This document shows positions 5,742 through 24,391 of a stretch of DNA of 48,385 nt, one piece after another (within the stretch, counting starts at the first letter, position 1; every line of letters starts with the position of its first letter). The notes beneath the pieces were generated by a model that had not been told where the DNA came from, ran no database searches, and saw only the letters and a list, made by a program, of their open reading frames with translations. The position numbers were made by a program, and so were the translations under genes. The stretch is from Solirubrobacterales bacterium. GTDB taxonomy: Bacteria > Actinomycetota > Thermoleophilia > Solirubrobacterales > 70-9. Location of the stretch: positions 1 through 48,385 of the forward strand of contig VEQW01000001.1 of the NCBI GenBank assembly GCA_018883025.1, given 5' to 3'.

Positions 5742-5905
5742 CTCTGGATCACTCCTTCGTTCGTTTGGGAAAGCCTCTGTCCGGAGATCGTCCGGGACCG
5801 TCAGGTTACCGGCCCTGCGGTCCTCGGACCGGCCCGGGCAGGCGCCTCCGAGGGCATCCGGGACTAGGATCGGGTCGTGTCCGCTTTCCGGTGGGAGCCA
5901 GAGAG

Positions 5906-6985
5906 GTGAAGGTCGTCTGCGCGACCGACTCACCGACCTGGCGCCTGCTGCTGGAGCGTTCGGTCGAAGCGCTCGGCCACGAGCCCGTCCTAGCCGAGGA
6001 CGGCGAGCAGGCCTGGGGTCTGATCGAGGCCGATCCCGAGATCGACGTCTGCGTGACCGACCGCCAGATGCCCGGGATGGGTGGCGAGGAGCTGGTCGAG
6101 AAGATCCGGAAGGAGCTCGAGGGGCGCTACGTCTACACCGTCCTCCTGACCGCCCAGGACACCTCCGAGGAGGTGATCGAGGGGATGGAGGCAGGTGCCG
6201 ACGACTACCTGGTCAAGCCGCTCGACCAGGTGGCCCTGGCGACCAGGCTGGTCGCGGCGGAGCGGGTGACCGCGCTCCATCGGACGATCGCCGAGCAGCG
6301 GGTCGAGATCGAGCGGCTCTATGGCAAGCTCGCCGACGCCTTCAAACGGTTCGTGCCCGAGTCCGTCGCCGAGCAGATCATCACCCGGAGCGACGAAGGC
6401 GTGAAGCTGGGCGGAGTCTCCCGGGTCGCAACCGTCATGTTCACCGACCTCCGGGGCTTCACCCAGTTCTCCGAGCATCAGGGTCCCGAGCAGGTGATCG
6501 AGGTCGTCAACCGTTACCTGGGCGAGATGTCCGAGGCGATCCTCAACGAGGAGGGCACGGTCGTCGCTTACATGGGCGACGGGATCATGGCGGTATTCGG
6601 AGCTCCGCTCGAACAGGATGATCACGCCGACCGGGCCCTCCGGGCGGCCAGGGCGATGCTGGACGTCCACCTGCCGAGATTCTCGGACTGGATGGAGGGG
6701 CAGGGGCTCGGTGAAGGCTTCCGCATGGGGATCGGCCTGAACTCCGGGGAGGTCGTCTCGGGGAACGTCGGCTCGGAGCGGCGGCTCGAGTACACCGCCC
6801 TTGGCGACACGACCAACACTGCGGCGAGGCTGGAAGGAATGACCAAGGGAACGCCCCACCAGCTCTACTGCTCGGAGACCACGAAGGAGATGCTGCTGGA
6901 CCCGCCCGATGACCTCGTCTTCGTCGACGAAGTCGACATCCGGGGCAGGGACCAGCCGCTCGGCGTCTGGTCGTTCGCGGAGTAG
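5906..6985 (+). CDS. Response-regulator receiver fused to a class III adenylate/guanylate cyclase catalytic domain
   Basis: REC domain: [10 protein letters not shown]...[18 protein letters not shown]...VLLTAQD...DYLVKP (acidic pocket, phospho-Asp, Thr and Lys all present). Cyclase domain: [64 protein letters not shown] place the start at in-frame GTG 5906. The tracked ORF starts at TTG 5765. Confidence 0.85.
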
Positions 6986-7026
6986 GCCCTGGAGGGCCGG
7001 TGGCCGGCGAGGTACCCGATCACGGA

Positions 7027-7032
7027 TAGAGT
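7027..7032 (+). promoter_or_regulatory. Candidate -10 hexamer (TAGAGT) 8 nt upstream of the MCP ATG; possible leaderless or short-leader transcript
   Basis: Sequence ggaTAGAGTaagtaggcATG. It matches the TAnnnT consensus. No convincing Shine-Dalgarno motif at proper spacing and no clear -35. This is a pattern match only. Confidence 0.2.
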
Positions 7033-7040
7033 AAGTAGGC

Positions 7041-9020
7041 ATGTTCCGCCTGCCGGGAACCGAGCCGGACGAAGTCGATCGGGGGTCGGAGGGAGCCCCT
7101 CCCGCCCCGCGACGGAGCCGCCTGCTTTCCTCGCCGGGAAGGCTGCCGGCCCTGCTGATCGCCCTGGCGGTCATCCCGACCGCGGTGGTCTCGGTCTTCA
7201 CCTTCATCAGGGCGAGCGACCTGATCCAGACGGGTATCGGCGAGGATCTGAGCGCCTCCGCCTCCTTCCTCGCGATCTTTACGGAACAGGACCTGGTCAA
7301 CCTGTCAAACCAGGCCCAGTCGCTTGCGGCCGAGCGAGCGATGCGTGACCTCAATCCCGTGGATGCCACCGGGAACCTGACCCGCGAGCTCATCGCCTTC
7401 GCACCCAACTATCGCCAGGCGATCCTGGTAGACACCACCGGTCGGGTGGTCGCCGCGGCGACGAAGCCTCCCGGCGCGAGGGGACCCATCTCCCCCGCGA
7501 CATTCACCGGTGTCGACGTCAGTTCGGAGACCTGGTTCAAGGACGCCCTGGTCAACAACAGTGGTGGGGACTCCGGAGTGATCCTGGAAGGGGTGGAGAA
7601 CCGACGGGTGATCGGCGAGGTCGAGGGCAGCGATGCCGCCCCACCCGCTCCTGTTGCGGCTGCGACGGTGCGGAAGGATCGGACCATCGTCGGGGTCCTG
7701 GCCCTCTTCCCGAACTGGCCGGTCACCGCCAGATACCTGGCCGCAGGAATCAAGGAGCAGGCAAGGCGAACCGACGCGAAGGAGGTAATCGGCCTGCTCA
7801 CCGATGAACAGGGACGAGTGCTCGTGGGTGCCGACGGAAAAGTCGACCTGAACACGGATTTCAGAGGCGACAAGGTCCTCCAGGAGGCACTGGCCTCGCC
7901 GGGCAACGGCTGGACCGAGGCCTACGACGATCCGGCCGATGGGGGGTATCTCTCGGGCGAGACCATTTACGGGTTCGACCATCTCAAGGACGTTGGCGGA
8001 TCGGACTTCGACTGGATCTGGATCGTGGCCCAGGAGAAGAGCGTTGCGATGGCCGACACCTCGGGACTCAGGCTGAGGCTGATCCTGGGTTCGATCCTGA
8101 TCCTGCTTGCGGCCGCGCTGATCGCCCTGTTCGTGGGCAGGGCACTTACCCGGAGGGCGCGGGAGTTGCGGGCCACCGCGGACGAGGTCGCGGAGGGCGC
8201 CTCGATCATGAAGGCAAGCGCCGAGAAGGGCAGAACCCGCGCCCAGCGGACCGAGGAGCTCGCCTCCCAGCAGGTCGAAGGCATGGAGCGAATGCGCGAA
8301 CAGGTCGAGGAGATGCGGAGGACCGGTGGTCGGATCGGCGAGAGTGCCCGGCTGGTCGCAGAGCAGGCGGGCAAGGCCGCAGAGGCCGGCGAAGGTGGAC
8401 GCAGGGCCGCAGAGGAGGTCGACCGGGCGATGGTCGGAATAGAGCAGAGGGTCCGCGCACTCGAGGGGGAGATCGGTGCGCTTGCCACCCAGACCGACCA
8501 GATCGGGGAGATCGTCTCGACCGTTTCCGGGATCGCCGACCAGTCGAACCTGCTCGCCTTCAACGCGACCATCGAGGCGGCCAAGGCCGGGGAGCAGGGT
8601 GCCGGGTTCGCCGTTGTCGCCGAAGAGGTAAGGACCCTGGCCGAGCGCTCGAAACGTGCGACCGCCCAGATCCAGGCGATCCTGAACGAAATCGAGAAGG
8701 CAACCAGGACTGCCGAGCGCTCGGCGCACGAGGGTCTCGATGCCGTGGTCAGCGGGCGGGAAAGGGCTGCGAGTGCAGCCAGGACGATCGATGAGCTGGC
8801 CGAGGCCAACCGGGAGGCCGAGCGCACGACCCGGGAGATCGCCGACTTCGTTCCCAGCCAGTCGGAGGCGAGCGACGTGGTGCTGGAGGTCGCGGAGGAA
8901 TCGGTCGAGAGGGCAGCCGAGGTCCGTGGCGAAGCCCACCATTCCTCGAACTCGACCGCCGAACTCGACCGTCTGGCGGAGCGGCTGCGGGAGCTGGCCT
9001 CCACCCTGACCACGGACTGA
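7041..9020 (+). CDS. Methyl-accepting chemotaxis protein with a large extracytoplasmic (Cache-like) sensor domain
   Basis: Two hydrophobic segments ([22 protein letters not shown] and [22 protein letters not shown]) bracket a sensor region of roughly 285 aa. The highly conserved MCP hairpin tip is present: [40 protein letters not shown]. Confidence 0.9.
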
Positions 9021-9027
9021 CCCGGGG

Positions 9028-9444
9028 ATGGACGAGAGCCCGGGCCTGATCGAGCTGACCGGTGGCGAGAAGGCCCTGGACCAGGCGAGCCTGATCCGCC
9101 TCGTCGAAAGCCCGGAAGTGGCCCCGATCCCGAACCCCGACGGAGCCTGGGTCGGGGTGGCCAACCTTCGGGGCGAGGTGATCCCGGTGACCGACCTCGG
9201 AATCCTGTCCGGTTCCGGTCCGGTCGAACGGCCGGTGATGATCGCGCTCCGGACTGGAGGGCGATCCTTCGGCCTGCTGGTCGAGGGGGTCGAGCGGACG
9301 GTCGAGGCCTCCGGGGAGGGGGACCTCCCCGACGAGCCCGAGCCGGGCGACCCACCCTGGTTGCTCCCAGCCCCTCCCGGCAGTCCCCGGGTCATCGACC
9401 CCGAACTCCTGCTTGAGGATCCCCGGCTCGGTTCCGGCACATGA
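9028..9444 (+). CDS. cheW: CheW-like coupling protein
   Basis: 138 aa with the CheW-domain pattern ...VAPIPNPDGAWVGVANLRGEVIPVTDLG...VMIALRTGGRSFGLLVEGV. It starts 7 nt after the MCP stop and overlaps the cheA start by 4 nt (ATGA). Confidence 0.85.
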   Translation: MDESPGLIELTGGEKALDQASLIRLVESPEVAPIPNPDGAWVGVANLRGEVIPVTDLGILSGSGPVERPVMIALRTGGRSFGLLVEGVERTVEASGEGDLPDEPEPGDPPWLLPAPPGSPRVIDPELLLEDPRLGSGT

Positions 9445-11576
9445 GCCGCGCCTTCCGTCCCGACGACGAGCTCAGGGGGGAGCTGCTCTCGCTCTTCGCC
9501 GGTGAGGCGCGGGACGAACTCGACACGATCTCCTCCGGGCTGGTCTCTCTCGAGTCGGGCGGAGAGGACGCCATCTCCTCGGGAAGGTTCGACGAGATGA
9601 TGCGGGCTGCCCACAGCCTCAAGGGCGGTGCAAGGGCGGTCGAGCTCGATCCGGTCGACCGGATCGCCCACGCCCTCGAGGGACTGATGAAGGCGGCGGC
9701 AGAAGGAGGCGGATTCGGAGTCGACACCGTCGATCTCGCCTACCGCGCCCTGGATGCGATCGAAGTGATCATCGAGGCCGCAACCGGGGGACCGCCCACC
9801 GAGGTAAACGTGACTGCGATCTGTGACGAGCTGACGGCGGCCGCAGGAGGTGACGGCGGTGGAGGTGCGCGAGAGCAAGGTCCAACTGAGCGACCCGGGG
9901 ACCGTCCCGAACCCGAGAGGACCGCTCCGGGCACCGCGCCTGAAACGAAAGCCGAAGATCCGGGCGGGCCTGTCGATGCCCCGACCACTCCACTGGCCGA
10001 GACGACGGTCCGGGTCAATGTCGCCAAGCTGGATCGCTTGATGGCATCGGTCCGCGAGCTCGAGACCGCCCGGGTCGGGGTCGAATACGCCACCTCCCAG
10101 CTGGAGGAAGTCGCCGAGCGGGAGGACATCGAGACCCGCCAGTACGACCGGCGCTCGGGGGCGATCAGGGATGCCACTGCCGGACCGCTGACCCAACTGG
10201 AGAGGGCCGCGAGAGAGGTCGCCGAGGAAGTTGCCGAGGCCCGGACCGTCCCGCTCTCCCTCGCCTTCGATCCCCTTCCACGAACCGTCCGTGAACTCGG
10301 TCGTGACCTCGGTCGGAAGGCGAGCATCGAGGTCTCGGGAGGCGAGATCGACGTCGACCGCTCGGTGATGGAGGTCCTGAGGCCCGCACTCGTCCATGTG
10401 ATCCGGAACGCGATGGACCACGGGATCGAGCCACCGGCGGTCAGGACCGCGGCCGGGAAGTCCGAGGAGGGCCGGATCACCGTCAGGGCCCGGTCGGGGG
10501 GAGGTCGACTCGAGGTCGAGGTGACCGACGACGGGGCCGGACTAGATGTCGAGGCGATCAAGCGAAAGGCGATCGATGCCGGCCTGATCTCGGCCGCGGA
10601 GGCGGATGCACTCTCCGAGGACGAGGTAGCCGCGCTGCTGACCAGGCCCGGTTTCTCGACCCGTGAGTCTGCCGGGGAGATCTCCGGGCGTGGAGTCGGG
10701 CTGGACGCGGTACAGGAGGGCCTCGCATCGATCCAGGGAAGTCTCGAGATCGTCGGAATCAGGGGGTCGGGAACGATGGTCACGATGAGCGCCCCCCTGG
10801 CGATCGCCGCGACCGAGGTACTGGTGGCGCGCCTCGGCGGGCACCCGGTCGGGTTTCCCCTGATCGAGACCGACCAGGTACTGGAGCTCGAGGACCCCGA
10901 AGCCGCCGAGGTTGAACTGAGCGGCTTGATCGTCCCGCTTTCGAGTCGCGAGACGATCGGCGGGCTGGCACCGGACGTCGCTATCGAGCCCCGCTACGCC
11001 GTAGTCGTCCGCTCCTCTGGCCGACGGATCGCCTTTCCGGTGGAAGAGCTGGTCGGGGTGACCCGGTTGAACACGATGCCCCTGCCGGACCTGCTGCCCC
11101 CGATCGACCTGTTCAAGTCGGTCGCGATCCTCCCTGACGGCAGCGTGCTACGGGTGCTGGAGCCACCCGCTCTGATCGAGGACCTTCCCCCGGCCCCCCG
11201 GCTCCTGGTCGTCGACGACTCGGCCGCGTGGCTGGAAAAGAGCAGGGAGTGGTTCACCCGGGCCGGCTGGGATGTAGGGACGGCAACCAACGGGCGGGAC
11301 GCCCTGTCGATGTTGTCGGAGGACTCCTTCTCCGCCCTGCTCACCGATCTCGAGATGCCCGATGTAGACGGCATCGAGCTGACCAGGACCGTCCGCGCCG
11401 GCGGGGCCGGAAGGGCCGATATCCCGGTGGTCGTCTGGTCTGCCTCGGCCGATGGGGAGGCCGGACCGACGGCGCTGGGGGCGGGGGCCGATGCCTTCCT
11501 GGCCAAGGAGGCCGGGAATGAAGCGGGCGCGCTGGAGGCGATCAACGGGGCGCTGGAGCAGCGACCAGCGACCTGA
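9441..11576 (+). CDS. cheA: Hybrid CheA histidine kinase (Hpt-dimerisation-HATPase-CheW-like-REC)
   Basis: P1 Hpt motif MRAAHSLKGGARAV. P3 segment VRVNVAKLDRLMASVRELE. N-box HVIRNAMDHGIE, G1 DDGAGLD, G2 GRGVGLDAV. P5 segment VLVARLGGHPVGFPL. C-terminal receiver RLLVVDDSAAW...LLTDLEMPDVDGIEL...VVVWSAS. A Pro/Gly/Glu-rich linker sits where P2 would be. Confidence 0.9.
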   Translation: MSRAFRPDDELRGELLSLFAGEARDELDTISSGLVSLESGGEDAISSGRFDEMMRAAHSLKGGARAVELDPVDRIAHALEGLMKAAAEGGGFGVDTVDLAYRALDAIEVIIEAATGGPPTEVNVTAICDELTAAAGGDGGGGAREQGPTERPGDRPEPERTAPGTAPETKAEDPGGPVDAPTTPLAETTVRVNVAKLDRLMASVRELETARVGVEYATSQLEEVAEREDIETRQYDRRSGAIRDATAGPLTQLERAAREVAEEVAEARTVPLSLAFDPLPRTVRELGRDLGRKASIEVSGGEIDVDRSVMEVLRPALVHVIRNAMDHGIEPPAVRTAAGKSEEGRITVRARSGGGRLEVEVTDDGAGLDVEAIKRKAIDAGLISAAEADALSEDEVAALLTRPGFSTRESAGEISGRGVGLDAVQEGLASIQGSLEIVGIRGSGTMVTMSAPLAIAATEVLVARLGGHPVGFPLIETDQVLELEDPEAAEVELSGLIVPLSSRETIGGLAPDVAIEPRYAVVVRSSGRRIAFPVEELVGVTRLNTMPLPDLLPPIDLFKSVAILPDGSVLRVLEPPALIEDLPPAPRLLVVDDSAAWLEKSREWFTRAGWDVGTATNGRDALSMLSEDSFSALLTDLEMPDVDGIELTRTVRAGGAGRADIPVVVWSASADGEAGPTALGAGADAFLAKEAGNEAGALEAINGALEQRPAT

Positions 11577-13428
11577 TTTCCTCGAGGTGGGCCTCGCCTG
11601 CAGCCCGCCCGATCTCCACCGCCCGATCGAACGAGCCGAAGTCGAGCATCTTGAGGCGCGACACCTCCGGTTCGATCAGCAGGTCCGCCCGACCGGAAAC
11701 CCCCTCCCCCGCCGCAGCCGAACCGAGCAGTACCGACCGCAGCAGGGTCTCCCCGAGAAAGGGCAACGCCGGGTGTCCCTCCCGATCCAGGTCGGGCTCG
11801 AACCTCCCACCCACCTCGACTGCGACGACCGGGCCCTCATCCATGTCGGACATCACATCGACCGGCAGGTTCCTGATCAACCCGCCATCGACGAACAGGC
11901 GGCCGGCGTCCTGTCCCGGCGGCAGGAAGGCCGGGATCCGGGCGGTGTTCAGGGCTGCCTCGGCGACGAGCCCGGATCGCTGGACCACCATCTCCGCCTC
12001 GACCATGTCGGCGGCCACCGTGAACAGGTCGATCGGCAGCGTCTCGATCACCCGGTCGCCAAAGATCCGCTCCATCACCTGCTCCGCCCCATCGGTTCTC
12101 GATACGGCGCTCCTGGGGGGCACCTGGTACCGGTGACGGACCCTCCTACTGAAGATCGACTTGACCGCCCGGCGACGGGAGGGTGCGTCGAGTCCAACCG
12201 CAAAGGTCGAGGAGACGATCCCGCCCATGCTGGTACCGCCGATCCGGTCGACGAGTATCCCGTTCTCCTCCAGGACCTCGATCAGGCCGAGGTGGGCAAA
12301 GCCCCTGGCCCCACCGCCCCCGAGGACGAGGCCGAGCGAGGAGCCGGTGAGCCTTCGTGCGGCCCTTGCCAGATCGGCCCCCTGCGCCTCCCCTGCCTCG
12401 ATCCGATGACGGGACCGGGGCCGGAGAACTTCGATCCAGGCGGCTGCAACCTCGGCCGGGTACTCCGGACCGACGAAGATCAGGTCACAGCCCTGGAGCC
12501 TCGGCATCGGCTTCCTGGGCGGGGGCATCCGCGGCGGTGCCACACAGACCAGTCGGTCGGCCTGGCGCACGCAGAACCGCCGCCACTCTCCCTCATCCCG
12601 ATCGGCGACCAGGATCACCCGCTGGTTCTGCCGCTCGGACTCATCGAGAAGGTGACCCCAGGCAACCGGGTCACCAGACTCGGCAACCGACGGATCGAGA
12701 ACGGTGACCCCACCGAGATCGGCAAAGGCCCGCCTGACCCCATCGGCGATCGCGGCCACATCCATTCCGTCGAGAAGAGGGACGACCGCGAAGGTCTTGT
12801 GCTCGGGCAGGTCCTCCGGCAGCCCACCGCTTGCCTGGAGCTGCCGACCGAGGGTCGAGACGAGCGCCCTCGTGAAGGTCGGAACCGAGGTCATGAGCTC
12901 GCGAAACGCCTCGAACGACAGCCTCAGCAGGCTCGAGTCCCGGCTGGCCCTGACCGATGCCGAGCGAGGGTCCCCGGTGACCAGGGCGAGCTCCCCAACC
13001 GTCGCCCCCGGACCGAGTACACGGAGGATCTCGATTTCGTCGTCATCCCGGGATCCGTCCGGGCCTTCCCCGCGAACCACTTCGAGCCGCCCGGTCTCGA
13101 CCAGGTAGAGGGCGTCCCCCGGATCGCCCTTCCTGATCAGCCAGTCGCCTGCCTCGACGGCTACCCGTTCGAGGCGTTCCTCGACCTGGTCCCTCGCCTC
13201 GGCCGGAAGTGCACCGAACAACGGGCTCTCGGCGAGGATCCTCGCGACGCGATCATCTCCAGCCTCCACGGGGAGCGAGTCTACGGCGATATTCCGAAAT
13301 CCCCTGGATGACCCGGACCGGCTGAAACGGGCTCGGCTAGGCTTCACTGCCTTGCGACTCCGAGAGGAAACCCAGTGGACTTCCTGACCCAGGCGGACAC
13401 CGAGAAGCTCGGAGGAGCGATCAACCAC
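11542..13428 (-). CDS. Cyclic-nucleotide-binding domain + patatin-like phospholipase (NTE-family architecture)
   Basis: N-terminal CAP-type cNMP domain: PLFGALPAEARDQV...GDWLIRKGDPGDALYLVETGRLEV...GELALVTGDPRSASVRA (intact phosphate-binding cassette). Patatin motifs: LVLGGGGARGFAHLG (oxyanion hole), GGTSMGG (GxSxG) and FVDGGLIRNLP (catalytic Asp). Start uncertain: the maximal ORF start at 13428 overlaps the divergent gene. In-frame GTGs at 13347 and 13269 are alternatives. Confidence 0.85.
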   Translation of the reverse strand: MVDRSSELLGVRLGQEVHWVSSRSRKAVKPSRARFSRSGSSRGFRNIAVDSLPVEAGDDRVARILAESPLFGALPAEARDQVEERLERVAVEAGDWLIRKGDPGDALYLVETGRLEVVRGEGPDGSRDDDEIEILRVLGPGATVGELALVTGDPRSASVRASRDSSLLRLSFEAFRELMTSVPTFTRALVSTLGRQLQASGGLPEDLPEHKTFAVVPLLDGMDVAAIADGVRRAFADLGGVTVLDPSVAESGDPVAWGHLLDESERQNQRVILVADRDEGEWRRFCVRQADRLVCVAPPRMPPPRKPMPRLQGCDLIFVGPEYPAEVAAAWIEVLRPRSRHRIEAGEAQGADLARAARRLTGSSLGLVLGGGGARGFAHLGLIEVLEENGILVDRIGGTSMGGIVSSTFAVGLDAPSRRRAVKSIFSRRVRHRYQVPPRSAVSRTDGAEQVMERIFGDRVIETLPIDLFTVAADMVEAEMVVQRSGLVAEAALNTARIPAFLPPGQDAGRLFVDGGLIRNLPVDVMSDMDEGPVVAVEVGGRFEPDLDREGHPALPFLGETLLRSVLLGSAAAGEGVSGRADLLIEPEVSRLKMLDFGSFDRAVEIGRAAGEAHLEEIRSLVAAPAPR

Positions 13429-15177
13429 CTCGTGATCGGCCTCTGCCGGCTCGAGGAGAGGGCAGATGGCACCGTCCCCTCTTTCGAGGAGGTGAGGGAG
13501 CTGGTGGAGGAGCGTCTGGGGCGCTCACCGCGGTTCAGGCAGTTCCCGTACGCCCCGCCTGACCATGGCGGCCTTCCCGTCTGGGCCGATGCCCAGGACT
13601 TCGACCTCGACTACCACGTGGTCGAGGCAGAGACGGACGGCCCGGTCGATCGTCACCAGCTAGACGAACTGCTGGCCGAATGGATGACCACGCCGATCGA
13701 CGAGGAGCAGCCGCTCTGGCGGGTCCAGTACGTCCCTACCGAGGACGGCGCCGCACTGATGGTCAAGTCGAGCCACGCCCTTGCAGACGGACTGGGTTCG
13801 ATCGCCCTTTTCGCGATGCTGCTCTTCGACGTGACCGAGGAGCCGGTACGCGAGGACGCGGCCCCCTGGGAACCGGCCCCCTTGCCGGATGCCTCGGAGC
13901 TCAGGACGGCGGCAGGCCAGGCCGACTCGGATGAGGCCGAGGCCGACAAGACCCCCCTCGAAAAGGTGGTCTCCCTCATTTCGAGCCCCGAGGCGATCCG
14001 GCAGACCGCGACCGAAACGGCAGGGGTCAGCTCCTACCTGATCCGGAAGGCCCGGACCGAGGTCGCACCGAGTCCCCTGGCCCAGGGGTCCGGCATGCCG
14101 CTGGAACTGCACACCCTCGAATACCCACTCGATCGGCTCAAGCTGCTCGGTCGTGGCCTCGGGACCGGCGCGACGATGAACGACGTGATCCTCGGCCTGA
14201 CGGCCGGTGGCCTCCGCCGATGGTGCGTCGAGAACGGCTACCCACTGGAGGAGATCGCCGTGCGGGTCCCGGTCGCGACGAAGAAGAGGGAAGGTGAGGG
14301 TGAGGGCAACGCGAGCGTAGCCCCGATGATCGTGCCACTGCCCCTCGAGGAGGCGGACCCGGTCAGGCGGGTTCGCCTGCTCAGGGAGCGGACCGAGTCG
14401 ATCAAGAATGCCGGTCAGCCGGAGCTGAACCTGGCGGTCCGGAACCTGGCCAGGGAGGCCCCCGGTCCGGTCGGCGAGCGGATGTTGAACCTGGTCACCG
14501 GCAAGGGGCAGGCAAACATCGCGATCCACAACCTGCCCGGACCCCCCCTCAAGCTCTACGTTCTGGGGGCACCGACCGCCTCGTTCCACAGCTTCACACT
14601 GCCGCGGGCCGGCCTCGCGATCCACCTCAACGTCGTCTCGGTCGGCGGGGTAGTCTCGATCGGACTCGCGGCCGACCAGGGCGTCGCAGGGAGTCTCGCT
14701 CCGTTCGTTCGCGGCATCGAGGAGACGGAGGAGGCCCTCGCGAGCGGCGTGTCCTGCCTCGACCTCGTACGCCGGGTGCCGATCTTCGCACCGCTCGACG
14801 ATGAGATGCAGGAGGACCTCGCCTCCCGCATGGTCGAGCGAAGGGTCGAGGGTGGGGAGACCCTGGTCGCCCAGGGTGAGCCGGCTGAGGACTTCTTCCT
14901 GATCGTCGAAGGAGCCTTCGACACCCAGGTGGACGGCCAGTCGGTTCGGACGATGGGTCCGGGCGACTCGTTCGGGGAGATCGGCCTGCTCAGGGACACC
15001 GAACGAACGGCGACGGTAGAAGCGAAGGAAGCGGGAGTGGTGATGGTCTTGAGTCGCGAGGACTTCCTCGGTGCCGTCTCCGCCGACCCGGCAAGCATGG
15101 TCGTCGCCGACGCGATCATCAACACGAGGCTCGGCGATCTCGGGCGGTATCAGGTGTTCAGCGAGACAGCGGACTGA
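13375..15177 (+). CDS. WS/DGAT-family acyltransferase (wax ester synthase/diacylglycerol acyltransferase-like) with C-terminal cyclic-nucleotide-binding domain
   Basis: Active-site motif at the expected position (~aa 130): KSSHALADGLGS, a SHxxxDG variant of HHxxxDG. C-terminal-half WS/DGAT pattern: ANIAIHNLPGPPLKLYVLGA. The last ~135 aa form a CAP-type cNMP domain: RRVPIFAPLDDEMQEDL...GETLVAQGEPAEDFFLIVEG...FGEIGLLRDTERTATVEA. GTG start with GAGAGGAAA upstream. Confidence 0.8.
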   Translation: MDFLTQADTEKLGGAINHLVIGLCRLEERADGTVPSFEEVRELVEERLGRSPRFRQFPYAPPDHGGLPVWADAQDFDLDYHVVEAETDGPVDRHQLDELLAEWMTTPIDEEQPLWRVQYVPTEDGAALMVKSSHALADGLGSIALFAMLLFDVTEEPVREDAAPWEPAPLPDASELRTAAGQADSDEAEADKTPLEKVVSLISSPEAIRQTATETAGVSSYLIRKARTEVAPSPLAQGSGMPLELHTLEYPLDRLKLLGRGLGTGATMNDVILGLTAGGLRRWCVENGYPLEEIAVRVPVATKKREGEGEGNASVAPMIVPLPLEEADPVRRVRLLRERTESIKNAGQPELNLAVRNLAREAPGPVGERMLNLVTGKGQANIAIHNLPGPPLKLYVLGAPTASFHSFTLPRAGLAIHLNVVSVGGVVSIGLAADQGVAGSLAPFVRGIEETEEALASGVSCLDLVRRVPIFAPLDDEMQEDLASRMVERRVEGGETLVAQGEPAEDFFLIVEGAFDTQVDGQSVRTMGPGDSFGEIGLLRDTERTATVEAKEAGVVMVLSREDFLGAVSADPASMVVADAIINTRLGDLGRYQVFSETAD

Positions 15178-15189
15178 GGGAAGGGCTCC

Positions 15190-15990
15190 GTGGCAGCGCA
15201 ACCGACCGCCTGGCTCTGCTCCCACCCGAAGAGCGGCCGCACCTGGATGCGGTTCGCCCTCGTCCAGCTGCTCGATTCCCTCCACGGACTCGACGGCGGT
15301 TTCGACATGCTGAACATGTTCGGACTGATCCCCAACTCCGACGGTGAGGGGAAGACCCAGCCGACCAAGACCCCCGACAACTATCGCTACAGCGACCGGT
15401 CCGATGTCCCCTTCATCGTCATGAGCCACCTGCCCTGGGAGAGTTCCTTCTCCGAGCTTCCGGCGGTCTTCCTCGTGAGGAGCCCGGGTGATGTCCTCGT
15501 TTCCTACTACCACCACATGAACCGGCACGACGGAAGGTTCCAGGGGACCCTCGACGAGTTCGCCCGGGATCCGGAGTACGGAATCCCGAACATCGTCTCT
15601 TACCTGGCGTCCTGGGAGCCCCACCTGGACGATCCGAACCTGACCGTGGCCACCTACGAAAGGCTGAAGGCAGAACCGGTCGAGGAATTCGGGAAGCTCG
15701 TCTCCGGGCTCGGAATCGAGGCGGGTACCGCAGAGCTGCAGGCGGCCCTCGACGCGGCATCGGTAGAGCGGATGCGGGAAGTCGAGGCGAGGACAGGAGT
15801 CGGTCAGCCCCAGGCGTACGACTTCGGCGATCCGGACGCGAGGCGGGTCCGCAAGGCGAAGGTCGGAGGCTGGCGAGAGGAGATGGACGACGACACGATC
15901 GCACTGCTCCTGGCCGAGATCGAAGCCTCTCCCGAGGCGAGTCAGCTACTCGAGCGACTCGACCTCATGCCGGGGCCGGCCCCGGTCTGA
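15190..15990 (+). CDS. Sulfotransferase (Sulfotransfer_1-like, PAPS-dependent type)
   Basis: 5'-PSB loop LCSHPKSGRTWMRF. 3'-PB-like motif LVRSPGDVLVSYYHH. GTG start 12 nt after the WS/DGAT stop with GAGGGAAGGG upstream, so it is likely co-transcribed. Confidence 0.8.
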   Translation: MAAQPTAWLCSHPKSGRTWMRFALVQLLDSLHGLDGGFDMLNMFGLIPNSDGEGKTQPTKTPDNYRYSDRSDVPFIVMSHLPWESSFSELPAVFLVRSPGDVLVSYYHHMNRHDGRFQGTLDEFARDPEYGIPNIVSYLASWEPHLDDPNLTVATYERLKAEPVEEFGKLVSGLGIEAGTAELQAALDAASVERMREVEARTGVGQPQAYDFGDPDARRVRKAKVGGWREEMDDDTIALLLAEIEASPEASQLLERLDLMPGPAPV

Positions 15991-16722
15991 GGGCGACTGA
16001 CCGGGCGGGTCGTAGAGGGCCTCGTCGAAGGGCCGATCGAAGAACCAGTCCCGATCGTCCGTTCCCGTCTTCCGAAGGGCGGCCAGGTTCGTCTCACGCT
16101 CGACCTCGGCCGTCCGGCCCTCGATCCGCTCGTAGGCACGGTTGGACACCACGTAGCCCACGGCCTTCTGGATCGCCGGCATCCAGGTGTCGTGGAAGAC
16201 GATGACGCCACCCTCTTCGAGCATCCGATCCATGTAGAAGAAATCGATCAGGGCGTGGTCGAACAGGTGGAGTCCGTCGACGAAGGCGAGGTCCACCCGG
16301 GTTCCGTCAGCTGCCAACGCAGGAAGCGCCAGTTCGGAAGGCTCCTCGATCAGGGTGATGTATTCCCGCACGCCCGCCTTGTCGGCAAGGTCGAGTCCGG
16401 CCGACTTCCATTGGGCGGTCTGGTACGGATCGATGCAGGTATGGATCCCTTCCCCACGTCCGGCGTGCACCGAGGCGACCGCAACCGCTGAGTGGCCTGC
16501 GGCCATCCCGGTCTCGATCGTCCGACGGGCATCGAGCTCACGGGTCAATCGGGCAAGGAGCGCGGCGGTCTCTTCCTCGATCGGCGCATTCGAGGGCTTG
16601 CTGGCTATCACCCGATCCCGAGGTCCGAGCAGCGGCGCCTCGGGCTCATCCGGGGGCGCCTTGCGGTATTCGGCGACCAGTACTTCGGGAAGCTCGGAGG
16701 AACTGTCTGATTCGTTTGCCAT
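15946..16722 (-). CDS. Class I SAM-dependent methyltransferase (Methyltransf_24 / O-methyltransferase family 3-like)
   Basis: ...IHTCIDPYQTAQWKSAGLDLADKAGVREYITLIEEPSELALPALAADGTRVDLAFVDGLHLFDHALIDFFYMDRMLEEGGVIVFHD matches the core beta-strand order and the D-x-D / FIDG-like motif of this family. Recognised by eye only. Confidence 0.6.
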   Translation of the reverse strand: MANESDSSSELPEVLVAEYRKAPPDEPEAPLLGPRDRVIASKPSNAPIEEETAALLARLTRELDARRTIETGMAAGHSAVAVASVHAGRGEGIHTCIDPYQTAQWKSAGLDLADKAGVREYITLIEEPSELALPALAADGTRVDLAFVDGLHLFDHALIDFFYMDRMLEEGGVIVFHDTWMPAIQKAVGYVVSNRAYERIEGRTAEVERETNLAALRKTGTDDRDWFFDRPFDEALYDPPGQSPSDRGRPRHEVESLE

Positions 16723-16764
16723 TGAGGGATTCCGGTCGCAGCGGGAGCCCGGGACCGGCCGGAC

Positions 16765-18183
16765 TCAGGTCCCGGCCAGCGACTCCTTCTCGTCGACCCG
16801 CTCGACGTCGAGGCCCCCGCTTCCGGGACCCGGGTCCTTGAACATCCTCATCGCCCAGGCGGCCGCCAGCGCCAGGAGGATGATCGCGGCACCGATCAGT
16901 GCGGTCTCGGACATGCTGTCGGCGAAGACCTTCAGCCCTTCGGTCAACTCGGCCGCCGGCAGGGTCGAGGAGTCGGCCGGATGCTGGATCTGCTGGTAGA
17001 CCTTCTCCGCCTCGCCTGTGGCGTACTTCGCTCCGAGCGCACCGAGGATCAGGGCGTTGGTGATCGCACCGAGGATCATCGAGCCGACCACGTTCCCGGC
17101 CTGGGAGGCAACGGTCATGGTGCCCGAGATCATCCCCCTCTGCACTGGATCGGCATCGGCGATCGCGTGCACGTTGACCGGGGTGGTCGCGAGGTTCACG
17201 GCAATACCGAGGACGAACATCGGAACCACGATCAGGGCGTAGGACTCGACCGTCAGGGCGACCGCCACCAACCCGAGGCAGGCCGCAACGAGCAGGAAAC
17301 CGACGATCGTCGGGGGACGCCAGCCGATCTTGTCCTTGAGCCTGCCCGCCAGGAGGCCACCGATCGCGATGCCGAGGATTCCCGGGATCATCGCCAGGCC
17401 GGCCGTGAGCGGGGAGAAACCGAGGACGCTCTGGAAGTAGATCCCCGAGTAGATGAAGACCCAGATCAACGGCAGCCGAATCCAGAAGATCAGGAACAGG
17501 CCGGCACGGAGCGAGGGCCGTTTGAGCATCTCCATCGTGACCAGCCGCTTCTTGTTGCGATCGATCCCCTCCCCTGCCGCTCGCAGGAAGACGTGGTTGA
17601 GGATCAGGAGCGGAACGATGATGATCGGGTTGACCAGGAAGATCCACTCCCAGGCGACCAGGTCGACTATCGCCCCGCCCGCGAGGGGGCCAACGGCGAG
17701 CCCGACCGCACTGACCGCCGCGTAGACCCCGAAGGCGGTTCCGGTCTTCCCTTCCGGGGCGACCCGGGTGACCAGGGCCTGGATGCATGGCATGAGGATC
17801 GCGGCACCGACGCCCTGGACTACCCGGCCGCCGATGATCATCGGGGCGTCCGTGGCCAGACCGCACATCAGCGACCCGACACCGAATACCACCAGGCCGA
17901 TGTTCATTCCCCTCAGCTGGCCGATTCGGTCGCCGAGCATCCCGCCGGGGATCAGAAGGACGGTGAAGGCAATCAGGTAGGCGTTGACCACCCACTGGCC
18001 TTCGGAGGGAGTGAGCCCGAGGTCCTCCTCGACCGTTGGCAGGGCTACCGAGATGATCGTCAGGTCGATCGCCGTGACCAGGCTGGCCATCGCCAGTACG
18101 AAGATCGAGACCTTCCAGCCGCTTGCCGAGAGACCTGCGCCCTCTCCCTTGCCCCCTTCCGGGCCGGTTTCAGACGTAGCCAT
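16765..18183 (-). CDS. MFS transporter (DHA2 / EmrB-QacA-like, 14-TMS type)
   Basis: 472 aa and highly hydrophobic throughout. N-terminal MFS pattern FVLAMASLVTAIDLTIISVALPTVEEDLGL...WVVNAYLIAFTVLLIPGGMLGDRIGQ, which is motif A-like. Confidence 0.85.
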   Translation of the reverse strand: MATSETGPEGGKGEGAGLSASGWKVSIFVLAMASLVTAIDLTIISVALPTVEEDLGLTPSEGQWVVNAYLIAFTVLLIPGGMLGDRIGQLRGMNIGLVVFGVGSLMCGLATDAPMIIGGRVVQGVGAAILMPCIQALVTRVAPEGKTGTAFGVYAAVSAVGLAVGPLAGGAIVDLVAWEWIFLVNPIIIVPLLILNHVFLRAAGEGIDRNKKRLVTMEMLKRPSLRAGLFLIFWIRLPLIWVFIYSGIYFQSVLGFSPLTAGLAMIPGILGIAIGGLLAGRLKDKIGWRPPTIVGFLLVAACLGLVAVALTVESYALIVVPMFVLGIAVNLATTPVNVHAIADADPVQRGMISGTMTVASQAGNVVGSMILGAITNALILGALGAKYATGEAEKVYQQIQHPADSSTLPAAELTEGLKVFADSMSETALIGAAIILLALAAAWAMRMFKDPGPGSGGLDVERVDEKESLAGT

Positions 18184-19051
18184 TGGCGGTCAGCCTCTCC
18201 CCGAACACGGCCTCCATCGCTTCGACCTCTTTCCCGGTCATGTGGTCCCGCCAGGAGCCGGGCTTGGCGAACCTGATCTCCCGACCGCTCCCCTTCTCCG
18301 TCTCCGGAACGTTTCGGTGGGCCTCGGCCTCGACCATCGCGGCGACCAGCTTGGGATCCCGGTCGAGGTCCAGGACCGAGAGGATCCCCGGCACTACCGT
18401 CTCGGGATCGGCCAGCAGGTCCTCGTACCGGACCTTGAGCCGGCGGTCGGGATCATGGGCGTCATAGGCGGCCTGGACCGCCTCCGTCCGGTACTTCCAG
18501 ACCGCGGCCTGCCACCGGATGAACCCGATCCGGTCCTCCTGGGTCACCGCGTAGGCACCGTCGGTCGAGGCCCAGGTCCCTTCCCGATAGGCGTCGAGCC
18601 AGGAGTCGACGACGTCGCGACCGTCGCGGAGCAGGAAGACGAGCCTCGACCCGGGGGTTATCGAAATCAGGTCCGAGGCCATGTGGGAGCCGCCCGGCTC
18701 CTTTACGACGACCCGGGTCCGCGGGTTCCGCCAATCCGGTCGGTCCCCGTCGAGCTGGTGGACCAGACGGTCGTGGAAGAGCCGCTCGAGCCCGGACCTC
18801 CAGACCTCCTCGTACTCGCGGTTGAAGAAGTAGTCGCGGCGGTCCTCCTTGATCGCCTTGAAGGTGGTCAGTGGAGGTGGCTCCACCGACTGCCAGGCGA
18901 GGGCGATCGGCCGCCAGACGCCGAGATGGTGGCCCAGGCCGGTCTCGTTGATCCCGACGACGTCGGGATGGTGGCGAAGCATCCGGAGCAGCCAGGTGGA
19001 CCCGCTGCGGGATGAGCCAAAGATCCAGGTCAGGTCGGGGCGCTCCTCCAC
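18170..19051 (-). CDS. Sulfotransferase family protein (Stf0/Sulfotransfer_3-like)
   Basis: P-loop-like PAPS motif IFGSSRSGSTWLLRML. Second motif LVFLLRDGRDVVDSW. GTG start. The stop overlaps the MFS start by 14 nt. Confidence 0.75.
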   Translation of the reverse strand: MEERPDLTWIFGSSRSGSTWLLRMLRHHPDVVGINETGLGHHLGVWRPIALAWQSVEPPPLTTFKAIKEDRRDYFFNREYEEVWRSGLERLFHDRLVHQLDGDRPDWRNPRTRVVVKEPGGSHMASDLISITPGSRLVFLLRDGRDVVDSWLDAYREGTWASTDGAYAVTQEDRIGFIRWQAAVWKYRTEAVQAAYDAHDPDRRLKVRYEDLLADPETVVPGILSVLDLDRDPKLVAAMVEAEAHRNVPETEKGSGREIRFAKPGSWRDHMTGKEVEAMEAVFGERLTANGYV

Positions 19052-19147
19052 GGCGACGAGATCGTAGCGCCAAACAGACGGCCCGTTGCGAAGTCGACGG
19101 ACCCGACCAGGTCGGAGGGACGGACCGACCCGACCGAGCCGGCGCTA

Positions 19148-19221
19148 TCGGGGCGCCCGGATTTGAACCGGGGACCTCACCGACCCGAACGGTGCGCGCT
19201 ACCAGGCTGCGCCACGCCCCG
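19148..19221 (-). tRNA. tRNA-Pro (anticodon CGG)
   Basis: Minus-strand sequence CGGGGCGTGGCGCAGCCTGGTAGCGCGCACCGTTCGGGTCGGTGAGGTCCCCGGTTCAAATCCGGGCGCCCCGA folds as a cloverleaf. Acceptor stem is 7 bp with C1-G72, D stem GCGC/GCGC, anticodon stem CACCG/CGGTG with loop TTCGGGT (CGG, G37), and T arm CCCGG-TTCAAAT-CCGGG. CCA is not encoded. Confidence 0.9.
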
Positions 19222-19259
19222 AGCGGAGTGACCCTACCGGACCGGCGAGGCCCGGCGAC

Positions 19260-19997
19260 CTACCGGACGGCCTCGATCGCGGTGCGGACCCGTTCGAGTC
19301 CTGGCGAGTCCTGGAGCACCTCCGTGCCGGATGGCCCGGCAACCACCATCGCCGGTTCGGCCCGCAGCCCCAGGTCGATCGCGATCTTGTCGTACTCCTC
19401 CAGCCTCCGGGTCGTGGCACTGTCGGGCTCGATCCCCCGCTCGAAGTCCCTCTTCCAGATCGGCAGCTCCATGCGCTCGACCCCCTCGGCCAGGTCCGAA
19501 AGGAGCTCCTCGTCGATCCTTCCTGCTTCCTCGGCCAGGTCGAAGTTCCGGACCATCAGGTAGGCGAAGTTCCACCCTGCATCCTGGGCCGCTGCTGCCT
19601 CGACCCCGTAGAAACTGATCTGGGTCGGGTTCCGGGTCAGCGACCGATTCCTGAAGAGCATCTGGACATCACCATTCCGGACCTCGGTCTCGACCAGGTC
19701 CGGGACCACGGCAAGGAAGTTCTCCCTTCCCGGAATGCTCTGGACATCGGTGAAGTACTGGATCTGGACCGGGGCATCACCGAACCCGAGCCTGTCACCG
19801 AGCTGGCGGACTCCACCGAAGATCCGCTGGGCATCGGTCGTTCCCTCGACCCTCACGTACTCGTTCGATGGCTCCTTGGTCGCCAACCCGATGATCCCGA
19901 CCAGCAGGGCTCCTCCGGCGACGATCAGCGCGAGCAGGATCCAGAACCGGCCCGGCCGGGCTCCGGTCGGCGACTCCGTGCCCTGCTCCCCGTTCAC
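19260..19997 (-). CDS. Membrane-anchored DsbA/thioredoxin-like protein lacking the CxxC active site
   Basis: N-terminal TM anchor FWILLALIVAGGALLVGIIGL. GDAPVQIQYFTDVQSIPGRENF aligns with the DsbA-family G.adAPV.ivEFsDfqCPyCarF block, with SIPG in place of CPxC. The protein has no cysteine at all. Confidence 0.55.
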   Translation of the reverse strand: MNGEQGTESPTGARPGRFWILLALIVAGGALLVGIIGLATKEPSNEYVRVEGTTDAQRIFGGVRQLGDRLGFGDAPVQIQYFTDVQSIPGRENFLAVVPDLVETEVRNGDVQMLFRNRSLTRNPTQISFYGVEAAAAQDAGWNFAYLMVRNFDLAEEAGRIDEELLSDLAEGVERMELPIWKRDFERGIEPDSATTRRLEEYDKIAIDLGLRAEPAMVVAGPSGTEVLQDSPGLERVRTAIEAVR

Positions 19998-20275
19998 CCA
20001 GCGACCGACTTGTAGTACCGGACGGCCAGGCCGGTCAGCAACGTTCGGAAGGCTTCCTCGAGTCCGACCCCGCTCTCTTCCGAATAGCGCCTCAAGCCGG
20101 TCTCCTCGATCTCCAGGCTGAGCTCGATCAGCTCCTCGACCAGCTCGGGATTGGTGTCGGAGAACCAGGCCCCGATCGAGTAGAGGTCGGTATCCATCAG
20201 CGACTCGATGAAGACATCGCCGTCTCCCGCTGGTGCGGCTGCGCCGGTTCTCTCGGTCTCGGCCACTGGGAACAT
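19994..20275 (-). CDS. Small acidic hypothetical protein
   Basis: 93-aa ORF whose stop overlaps the downstream DsbA-like start by 4 nt. It has coding-like composition (ELVEELIELSLEIEETGLRRYSEESG) but no recognisable family. Confidence 0.4.
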   Translation of the reverse strand: MFPVAETERTGAAAPAGDGDVFIESLMDTDLYSIGAWFSDTNPELVEELIELSLEIEETGLRRYSEESGVGLEEAFRTLLTGLAVRYYKSVAG

Positions 20276-22932: not shown

Positions 22933-22956
22933 GCCCGGCGGCCGGGTGCGCCCGGC

Positions 22957-24228: not shown

Positions 24229-24391
24229 CCCGCTCAGTATGCCAATCCGACGGGACGGGCGGAGGGAGGGGTAGCTCGTCTTCGAGGGGGGATGGGCGGC
24301 TCCGATCCAGCGAGGCGGTGGACGAAATCGATGCTTCGGGATTCGGCATCCAGAGCGGAACCCTGGCCTCCCGGCTAGATTCCGCGGGGCC

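Follow-up and report, generated by a model that had tools for sequence, protein, structure and literature searches.

Sulfotransferases, lipid enzymes and signalling proteins are encoded side by side in a Solirubrobacterales genome (Actinomycetota; Thermoleophilia). The stretch of DNA that was analysed, referred to here as the window, is 48,385 nt long and corresponds to positions 1 to 48,385 of contig VEQW01000001.1 (GenBank assembly GCA_018883025.1). An earlier note on this DNA had singled out five genes at 13375-19051. They code for a wax ester synthase/diacylglycerol acyltransferase (WS/DGAT) fused to a domain that binds cyclic nucleotide monophosphates (cNMP), two sulfotransferases (ST1 and ST2), a transporter of the major facilitator superfamily (MFS) and a methyltransferase, and together they were proposed to build and export a sulfated, O-methylated acyl ester. 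Open reading frames (ORFs), Pfam and NCBIfam gave the same genes, domains, motifs and spacings, and the quoted motifs PKSGRTW, RSPGDVLVSYYHH and SRSGSTWLL were all found. The G+C bias at third codon positions is typical of true genes in five out of five ORFs. The observation was thereby confirmed; the interpretation drawn from it is supported in part.

The five genes make up the right half of a longer block, about 13 kb in size, that is conserved in uncultured freshwater Solirubrobacterales. The conserved unit extends from a receiver-cyclase gene to ST2 (about 5903-19051 in the window) and comprises about ten genes instead of five (Table 1). A patatin lipase gene with its own cNMP domain and the genes for the cyclase, a chemoreceptor (MCP), CheW and CheA also belong to it.

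Table 1 Genes of the conserved block and the tRNA gene at its right edge (positions in the window)
Feature	Position	Strand	Length	Matches and remarks
Receiver + class III nucleotidyl cyclase	5903..6985	+		Response_reg 8.1e-19, Guanylate_cyc 2.7e-24 (Pfam)
Methyl-accepting chemoreceptor (MCP)	7041..9020	+		MCPsignal 4.5e-31; weak dCache_1 sensor 6.7e-07
CheW coupling protein	9028..9444	+		CheW (Pfam)
Hybrid CheA kinase (Hpt, dimerisation, HATPase_c, CheW-like, receiver)	9441..11576	+		Pfam
Neuropathy target esterase (NTE)-type lipase, N-terminal cNMP-binding + patatin	11542..13347	-		Patatin 3.4e-26, cNMP_binding 5.1e-21, weak NTE_Ploop
WS/DGAT O-acyltransferase + C-terminal cNMP-binding	13375..15177	+	600 aa	Pfam
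ST1, PAPS-dependent sulfotransferase, cytosolic-SULT type	15190..15990	+	266 aa	Sulfotransfer_1 5.7e-22
Class I S-adenosylmethionine-dependent methyltransferase	15946..16722	-	258 aa	Methyltransf_24 5.4e-19; last operon gene
DHA2-type MFS transporter, presumed exporter	16765..18183	-	472 aa	MFS_1 2.4e-56; TIGR00711 EmrB/DHA2 2.3e-48
ST2, second PAPS-dependent sulfotransferase	18170..19051	-	293 aa	Sulfotransfer_3 8.9e-22; first operon gene
tRNA-Pro(CGG)	19147..19222	-		Rfam, ARAGORN; right edge of block in clades A and B

To follow the conservation of the block, 185,579 species genomes were scanned, the contigs with ST1 homologues were examined, and all loci were queried by tblastn with 18 proteins. 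Wherever a Solirubrobacterales locus has an ST1 of at least 54% identity, the genes for patatin-cNMP, WS/DGAT-cNMP, ST1, MFS and ST2 occur in constant order. The MCP, cheW and cheA genes lie to the left of the patatin and WS/DGAT part in all clades, and in clades A, B and C the block begins with the receiver-cyclase gene. All close WS/DGAT-cNMP orthologues (at least 67% identity) for which a contig with context is available lie in the block; beyond them, identity is about 32% or less.

Three clade architectures were found, and they differ solely in tailoring or supply genes. Clade A, to which the window belongs (ST1 at least 84% identical), has the methyltransferase. Clade B (ST1 66-73%) lacks it and carries a third sulfotransferase, ST3, which is a 56%-identical paralogue of ST1. 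The ST3 gene lies between patatin and WS/DGAT. ST3, WS/DGAT and ST1 thus follow one another on a single strand, 27-28 nt apart, in an interleaved series of sulfotransferase and acyltransferase genes. In clade C (ST1 54-57%), cysD and a cysN/cysC fusion (GTP_EFTU and APS_kinase domains) lie between WS/DGAT and ST1. Clade C often has a cytochrome P450 gene as well, 45 nt after ST2 on the same strand, whose product is closest to AurH and to CYP125-type hydroxylases of lipid side chains. A core decorated by lineage-specific genes is typical of biosynthetic gene clusters. The conservation of all five genes, given earlier as a point to be checked, holds for WS/DGAT-cNMP, ST1, MFS and ST2 but not for the methyltransferase. 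By tblastn, the latter occurs only in loci with an ST1 of at least 84% identity and is missing in clades B and C. It may be regarded as a lineage-specific accessory tailoring gene, and the epithet "O-methylated" therefore applies to the lineage of the window at most.

The unit is bounded by the cyclase and ST2 because the outer flanks differ between clades. Left of the cyclase, a superoxide dismutase (SOD) gene is found in the window as opposed to Amidase_2 and Lactamase_B genes in clade C. Right of ST2, clades A and B share tRNA-Pro(CGG), a gene for a 245-aa protein (h245), NIF3, FadD and a second patatin, whereas clade C has quite different genes.

The PAPS genes of clade C bear on the chemistry. 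In actinobacteria that assimilate sulfate via adenosine 5'-phosphosulfate (APS) reductase, as established for Mycobacterium tuberculosis, APS kinase serves sulfation only. The cysC domain embedded in clade C therefore argues for genuine chemistry dependent on 3'-phosphoadenosine 5'-phosphosulfate (PAPS), and such a dedicated PAPS supply would point to real sulfation. The window itself holds no PAPS genes, as stated earlier: tblastn with the cysD and cysN/cysC of a relative returned EF-Tu-level similarity only. The idea of a sulfation module is supported by the PAPS-synthesis genes inside the block of clade C and by the PAPS-binding and catalytic motifs retained in both sulfotransferases.

Enzymes and signalling proteins of the block

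The ST1 gene starts 12 nt after the WS/DGAT gene and is probably co-transcribed with it in the window. Sparse metatranscriptome contigs map to the WS/DGAT, ST1, ST2 and MCP genes, too few for operon definition; the WS/DGAT-ST1 junction is spanned jointly by two overlapping contigs in one RNA-labelled run, which is weak evidence. In ST1, the 5'-phosphosulfate-binding loop PKSGRTW, which holds the catalytic Lys, occupies residues 13-19. Across 23 homologues, its Pro, Lys, Gly, Arg, Thr and Trp show a conservation of 90% or more, Ser79-His80 ("MSHLP") with the catalytic His and the 3'-phosphate-binding Arg97 and Ser105 are near-invariant, and the C-terminal RKAKVGGW is conserved. The AlphaFold model (predicted local distance difference test, pLDDT, 89.4) was matched by Foldseek to SULT1E1, SOT16 and SULT2B1 (E about 1e-10, template modelling score, TM, 0.65-0.73). 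It resembles oestrogen, hydroxysteroid/steroid, phenol and alcohol SULTs as well as plant SOT sulfotransferases at a TM of about 0.7. By sequence, ST1 is nearest to the glycopeptide sulfotransferases Teg12 and Teg14 and to cytosolic SULTs, StaL being far weaker. Because of these fold and sequence matches, a small hydrophobic hydroxyl compound is favoured as the acceptor.

ST2 is of a different type. Its motifs SRSGSTW, KEPGGS and LLRDGRDVVDSW vary little or not at all among 33 homologues, and its family is large (2,579 matches). The remotely nearest proteins are tyrosylprotein sulfotransferases (TPST) and the sulfotransferase domains of CurM and of olefin synthases; a profile search of the PDB returned TPST1/2 and the CurM sulfotransferase domain at about 1e-9. 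The ST2 model (pLDDT 88) fits TPST1/2 best, at a TM of about 0.6 and 17-20% identity. In other actinobacterial-type genomes, single ST2-family genes of 51-53% identity are found, at a conserved position, directly after a class I aminoacyl-tRNA synthetase gene (L100-L102). A cysS-like gene directly follows the ST2-family gene in L101 and L102 and lies about 5 kb further on in L100.

These relatives raise the question of whether the sulfotransferases act on a glycan, a glycolipid head group or a peptide, with the MFS protein exporting the product, as in a sulfated exopolysaccharide or a RaxST/RaxX-type system. The TPSTs are the best solved matches of ST2, and ST1 relatives of 31-40% identity occur in sphingomonads and others among genes for GT4 glycosyltransferases, epimerases, Wzx and Bac_transf. 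The block, however, has no glycosyltransferase, sugar-nucleotide gene, polymerase or flippase, and DHA2 MFS pumps are not known as polysaccharide exporters. As for a peptide, neither the gene calls nor the annotations show a precursor-peptide, peptidase-exporter or Rax-type ABC exporter gene in the block of any clade, short ORFs not having been searched specifically. The similarity to TPST is too remote to place ST2 in the TPST/RaxST family. A glycan or peptide acceptor is hence considered improbable.

The exporter gene is tightly linked to ST2. The start of the MFS gene overlaps the end of ST2 by 14 nt in the window and by 11-14 nt over all three clades, and MFS genes also flank the ST1 homologues of the loci L103 and L107-L109. 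After the MFS gene, a gap of 42 nt leads to the methyltransferase. The latter weakly resembles caffeoyl-CoA O-methyltransferase (CCoAOMT) and the cation-dependent O-methyltransferases, with PDB matches of only 5e-6. In clade A only, the ST1 and methyltransferase genes converge, and their 3' ends overlap by 45 nt (15946-15990) with no terminator-like structure; the transcript ends of the two operons would therefore be mutually antisense.

The two lipid enzymes are encoded divergently, and both have a cNMP domain. In the WS/DGAT, WS_DGAT_cat (PF03007, 8.8e-28) and WS_DGAT_C (PF06974, 1.1e-16) are both full length and are followed by cNMP_binding (1.8e-18). The score against TIGR02946 is 223 bits, under the cut-off of 309.95. 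A ribosome-binding site, AGAGGA, lies 7 nt upstream of the GTG start. The acyltransferase had been likened to HHxxxDG enzymes, but the active-site motif reads S-H-A-L-A-D-G in the window and S[SG]HAxADG across 13 orthologues. Its second His, which is catalytic, is retained together with the Asp and the Gly, while the first His is replaced by Ser or Gly in all 13; the unfused relatives have HH. The closest solved acyltransferase is Acinetobacter WSD (7nxg). The cNMP domain has the phosphate-binding cassette FGEIGLLRDTERTAT (FGEI..RTAT) with its Glu and Arg, conserved in the same orthologues. The patatin-cNMP protein is 60-80% identical and syntenic across all clades. Its longest ORF reaches 13428; the gene calls on L002 and L004 use 13347, which gives 601 aa. 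Its cassette VGELALVTGDPRSAS likewise keeps Glu and Arg.

For WS/DGAT-cNMP, a word-indexed search returned orthologues down to 67% identity and then unfused WS/DGATs at 30% or less. In an exhaustive search of 1.84 billion representatives, a few further fusions of about 590-620 aa were found at 27-32% identity to the window protein (P0264, P0271, P0273, P0276, P0278, P0286, P0306 and P0381). These eight share 21-46% identity with each other, two come from one 5.3-Mb contig, and six show the HH motif on inspection. Unfused family members reach at most about 33% identity to the window protein. Two proteins, P0134 and P0136, are fusions of a cNMP-binding domain with an MFS protein, and their cNMP domains are 44-46% identical to that of the WS/DGAT.

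The signalling genes form the left part of the block. The receiver-cyclase ORF could start from 5765; its homologues are 360 aa long. The receiver retains the phospho-acceptor Asp, Thr and Lys. In alignment with Cya2 and CyaC, the closest solved structures (130 bits), the cyclase has the metal-binding Asp pair and the transition-state Asn and Arg (TNTAARLE). The purine-specifying pair is Ala/Thr in eight of the nine loci compared and Ser/Thr in the ninth (L096). At these positions, Cya2 (2w01) has Glu, whereas Lys is found in CyaC and in the adenylyl-cyclase version engineered from Cya2 (6fht). In none of the nine loci was a canonical pair found, neither Lys/Asp-Thr for ATP nor Glu/Cys-Gly for GTP. 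As the Ala/Thr pair fits neither adenylyl nor guanylyl cyclases, the product may be neither cAMP nor cGMP. The cheA and cheW genes overlap by 4 nt, and neither CheB nor CheR is among the block genes according to the gene calls and annotations of the window and its relatives. The receiver-cyclase is the likely source of the cNMP signal, and its position beside two enzymes with fused cNMP sensors is the strongest regulatory hint. The earlier suggestion of cNMP control through the fused sensor fits the preserved phosphate-binding cassette and the cyclase gene of the block, and may be correct.

A cyclase beside a cNMP-binding phospholipase also recalls anti-phage defence of the Pycsar or CBASS kind, in which a cyclic nucleotide made upon infection would activate the patatin and kill the cell. 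In PADLOC, the cyclase matched the PycC models with 92 bits, the cNMP domains resembled the cNMP part of PycTIR effectors, and the patatin resembled CBASS phospholipase effectors; the cyclase also lacks the canonical purine-specifying residues. These matches amount to generic domain homology, however; the cyclase is nearer to Cya2 and CyaC, and every NCBIfam defence match is far under its cut-off. Furthermore, the block is fixed at one chromosomal place across the whole clade with ordinary G+C, its input is a chemoreceptor-CheA array, and one of the cNMP-binding enzymes is an acyltransferase. A Pycsar-like defence system was therefore set aside as highly improbable.

A proposed signal-gated pathway and its alternatives

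The block probably makes and exports a sulfated lipid-like molecule upon a signal from outside. The reading we favour, although tentatively, is that all its parts form one pathway gated by this signal, from chemoreceptor to cyclase, cNMP-binding lipid enzymes, sulfation and export. It builds on the observed gene content, motifs and conserved linkage, the PAPS genes of clade C and the gene triad of L103 described below. The domain content and operon structure suggest that the chemoreceptor/CheW/CheA array phosphorylates the receiver-cyclase, which would then make a cyclic nucleotide with its non-canonical specificity residues. The nucleotide would bind the cNMP domains of the WS/DGAT, which forms esters, and of the patatin/NTE lipase, which hydrolyses them. 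By their opposing actions, both enzymes could set the acylation state of a hydroxylated lipid-like molecule. With their intact motifs, ST1 and ST2 are predicted to sulfate the acceptor from PAPS, and the DHA2-type MFS protein, translationally coupled to ST2, would export the anionic product. Depending on the clade, tailoring would consist of methylation, a third sulfation or hydroxylation by the P450. The biochemical steps, their order and the common substrate are what we infer from the genes; acylation had been placed first, and nothing in the analysis indicates this.

A bolder version of the pathway appears unlikely. In it, the chemoreceptor-driven receiver-cyclase, perhaps with a non-canonical nucleotide, would gate the two lipid enzymes post-translationally and so lead to the export of a new, multiply sulfated, surfactant-like acyl lipid. 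An abundant uncultured freshwater actinobacterial lineage would then possess a chemosensory pathway whose output is secreted lipid chemistry and not motility or transcription.

Support for the link between acyltransferase, sulfotransferase and exporter comes from outside the block. On the high-G+C contig L103 (Logan SRR21358888, 1-3743), an unfused WS/DGAT of 31% identity with a canonical HHxxxDG is encoded divergently to an ST1 homologue (46%), and the latter gene is convergent with one for an MFS protein (43%). This acyltransferase ranks fifth among the unfused full-length representatives listed by the exhaustive search. Three members of the grouping proposed earlier recur there, and the L103 triad may be taken as independent support for their link. 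Other high-G+C contigs (L107-L109) likewise have an MFS gene beside their ST1 homologue.

A possible, although somewhat more doubtful, explanation is that two separate modules have been inherited side by side. One of them, with the cyclase, the Che proteins, patatin-cNMP and WS/DGAT-cNMP, would be a cNMP-controlled switch between the synthesis and the mobilisation of storage lipids. The other, with ST1, ST2 and MFS with or without cysDNC, P450 and methyltransferase, would sulfate and expel an unrelated soluble small molecule, such as a phenolic or steroid-like compound or a xenobiotic. Several arrangements would suit such a separation. A sulfotransferase pair occurs with ABC exporters and without WS/DGAT or patatin in L034, and the high-G+C contigs L107-L109 show an ST1 relative (38-46% identity) paired with MFS only. 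In clade C, the cys genes split WS/DGAT from ST1, with cysD and ST1 transcribed away from each other out of a common intergenic region. The modelled ST1 fold is that of soluble small-molecule SULTs, and WS/DGAT-cNMP fusions are also present in other, very divergent lineages. On the other hand, the adjacency outlasts three different rearrangements while both outer flanks change. The ST3-WS/DGAT-ST1 operon of clade B is interleaved, and L103 repeats the combination with a different, unfused acyltransferase. The WS/DGAT-cNMP orthologues of at least 67% identity with context are all found in the block, and beyond them identity falls to about 32% or less.

Several points weigh against the single signal-gated pathway. 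The whole case rests on genomic evidence, and no scaffold, fatty-alcohol, sugar or polyketide gene is encoded in the block. The first His of the acyltransferase motif is replaced. The nearest solved relatives of ST2 act on peptides (TPST) or on acyl-ACP (CurM), not on free lipids, and its relatives at 50-55% identity stand alone among housekeeping genes. The ST1 relatives in Proteobacteria (31-40% identity; sphingomonads, rhizobia and others) sit in polysaccharide clusters, adjoining GT4 glycosyltransferases, epimerases, Wzx flippases and Bac_transf genes. The cys genes between WS/DGAT and ST1 in clade C are oppositely oriented, so the two are not co-transcribed there. The link in L103 comes from a single contig of 3.7 kb. 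Finally, L034, a metagenome-assembled genome (MAG) of a more distant Solirubrobacterales member, has an ST2-like (46%) and an ST1-like gene (41%) beside two ABC exporter genes; over about 10 kb to the left and to the right, no gene for WS/DGAT, patatin or MFS was found. Action of acyltransferase and sulfotransferases on one molecule is therefore still an assumption of the single-pathway reading. The oldest association would be that of sulfotransferase(s) and exporter. The acyltransferase, lipase and signalling part may have joined the same pathway later, or it may be a neighbour of that pathway. In L034 (4050-10819), the two ABC exporter genes come first, and the ST2-like and ST1-like genes after them are parted by an oppositely oriented gene for a Prim-Pol domain fused to ankyrin repeats.

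Judged from its genes, the block can be described as a sulfated-metabolite gene cluster with unusual built-in second-messenger control. If the single pathway is true, a new class of sulfated product would come from Thermoleophilia, which are barely studied and are common in lakes and aquaculture water. It would be the first case of a cyclic nucleotide acting directly on a WS/DGAT acyltransferase, and it would reveal a chemosensory pathway signalling via a mononucleotide cyclase to metabolic enzymes encoded alongside. The three natural architectures (methyltransferase; extra sulfotransferase; P450 and PAPS genes) provide a comparative series. If there are two modules instead, the locus would still indicate a lipid storage switch under cNMP control and a conserved pairing of sulfotransferase and exporter.

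Chromosomal setting and neighbouring genes

Near-identical to identical copies of the block occur in many metagenome contigs and MAGs named Solirubrobacterales, and the sequencing runs that hold its sequence are freshwater, aquaculture and related metagenomes. Lake Zurich-type MAGs labelled "Bifidobacterium breve" (L025, L027 and L097; GCA_945889475.1 and a related assembly) also carry the block; this name is almost certainly a mislabelling. The window represents core chromosome, with NIF3, a FadD11-like ligase, ligA, surE, truA, rpoA, ribosomal-protein operons, EF-Tu and EF-G on the right. The genome has 67% G+C, and the G+C of the window is even (0.64-0.69). Recent horizontal transfer was ruled out by this flat profile and by the core region beside ribosomal-protein operons.

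The tRNA-Pro gene sits in a 209-nt gap directly upstream of the ST2-MFS-methyltransferase operon, and its position coincides with the end of synteny between clades. It is at the equivalent spot in four further loci of clades A and B (L011, L014, L021 and L022) and is not at that spot in the four clade C loci checked (L028, L029, L096 and L098). An Rfam scan of the window gave this tRNA as the sole match and no regulatory RNA. Scans for promoter and terminator consensus sequences yielded nothing informative in such high-G+C DNA. P450 genes were considered as a marker of the block edge and dismissed: the P450 left of the cyclase in L096 and that right of ST2 in L098 are 28% identical and are therefore different genes.

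Beyond the tRNA, two genes on the minus strand (19260-20275) code for proteins of 245 and 93 aa without a Pfam match and are syntenic in clades A and B only. The 245-aa protein has a weak likeness to the Rcas_1661-family thioredoxin-like lipoproteins (NCBIfam 1.9e-06). Two to four kb right of the block (21127-24786), a FadD11-like fatty-acid-CoA ligase (plus strand) and a second patatin-like lipase without a cNMP domain (minus strand) are likewise syntenic in clades A and B and not in C. These two might provide acyl-CoA or work on the same lipid, or they could have no connection with the block.

Comparison with known systems

Sulfated lipids and metabolites have been described from few bacterial systems, chiefly mycobacteria, rhizobia and some natural-product clusters, and their regulation is mostly transcriptional. 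The sulfolipid-1 locus of M. tuberculosis, with which the block was compared earlier, comprises Stf0, PapA1/PapA2, Pks2, FadD23, MmpL8 and Sap. Both systems occur in actinobacteria and combine PAPS-dependent sulfation, a His-motif O-acyltransferase and a dedicated exporter. In M. tuberculosis, cysD-cysN/cysC supplies PAPS, and the same genes are seen here in clade C. The analogy holds for this logic but not for the protein families, as no Stf0-, PapA-, Pks2- or MmpL8-type protein is among the ten block genes. The sulfotransferases of the block match Sulfotransfer_1 and Sulfotransfer_3, with no other sulfotransferase family among the Pfam matches, whereas Stf0 belongs to a different family. The acyltransferase is a WS/DGAT and not a PapA (PapA5 model 9e-4), the exporter is an MFS protein and not one of the resistance-nodulation-division (RND)/MmpL type, and the block has no polyketide synthase. 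In addition, it has cNMP domains and a chemosensory-cyclase operon. Judged by its protein families, the block is not the mycobacterial sulfolipid-1 pathway.

For the P450-ST2 pair of clade C, the sulfomenaquinone operon cyp128-stf3 of M. tuberculosis is by analogy a closer model than sulfolipid-1. In that operon, the P450 hydroxylates a lipid and the adjacent sulfotransferase sulfates it (PMC7404182, citing Sogi et al. 2016, Holsclaw et al. 2008). The clade C P450 likewise lies close behind ST2 on the same strand. It is nearest to AurH and CYP125, however, and the window has no P450. The mycobacterial operon comes without an exporter, an acyltransferase or cNMP parts.

The pairing of cNMP sensing with lipid esterases has mycobacterial counterparts. 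Rv2565 is a cNMP-binding NTE/patatin protein, and Rv3239c and Rv3728 are MFS-cNMP-esterase fusions. We know of no link of any of the three to sulfation. Rv2565 and Rv3728 are listed in PMC10865251. The combination of cNMP-binding and patatin/NTE domains is common to these proteins and the block lipase, and the fusions show that Actinobacteria repeatedly combine cNMP sensing with a lipid esterase and an MFS protein. The cNMP-MFS fusions P0134 and P0136 were found here as well. In contrast, the lipase, acyltransferase and transporter of the block have separate genes, accompanied by those for sulfotransferases and for a dedicated cyclase that receives chemosensory input.

Compared to characterized WS/DGATs (Acinetobacter AtfA/WSD, 7nxg; Marinobacter, 6chj), the window protein has both Pfam domains at full length as well as the catalytic second His and the Asp-Gly. 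It differs by its identity of at most about 33%, a score below the NCBIfam cut-off, Ser or Gly in place of the first His and the C-terminal cNMP fusion. A full-text literature search on sulfotransferases with wax ester synthases in actinobacteria returned nothing, and searches on cNMP, patatin and triacylglycerol and on sulfotransferase/PAPS/MFS clusters returned no account of the block.

Finally, the signalling part resembles the Wsp pathway, whose output is the diguanylate cyclase WspR. In both, an MCP-CheW-CheA array is combined with a receiver-nucleotide cyclase as output and not with a flagellar motor protein. Chemosensory pathways with alternative, non-motility cellular functions are known (PMC3447774). 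No account was found in the literature of one that feeds a class III cyclase beside cNMP-binding metabolic enzymes. Unlike in Wsp-type systems, the output protein of the block is a class III mononucleotide cyclase and not a GGDEF protein, and CheB and CheR are missing from the block. Moreover, the presumed targets here are metabolic enzymes with fused cNMP domains, encoded alongside the pathway that would control them.

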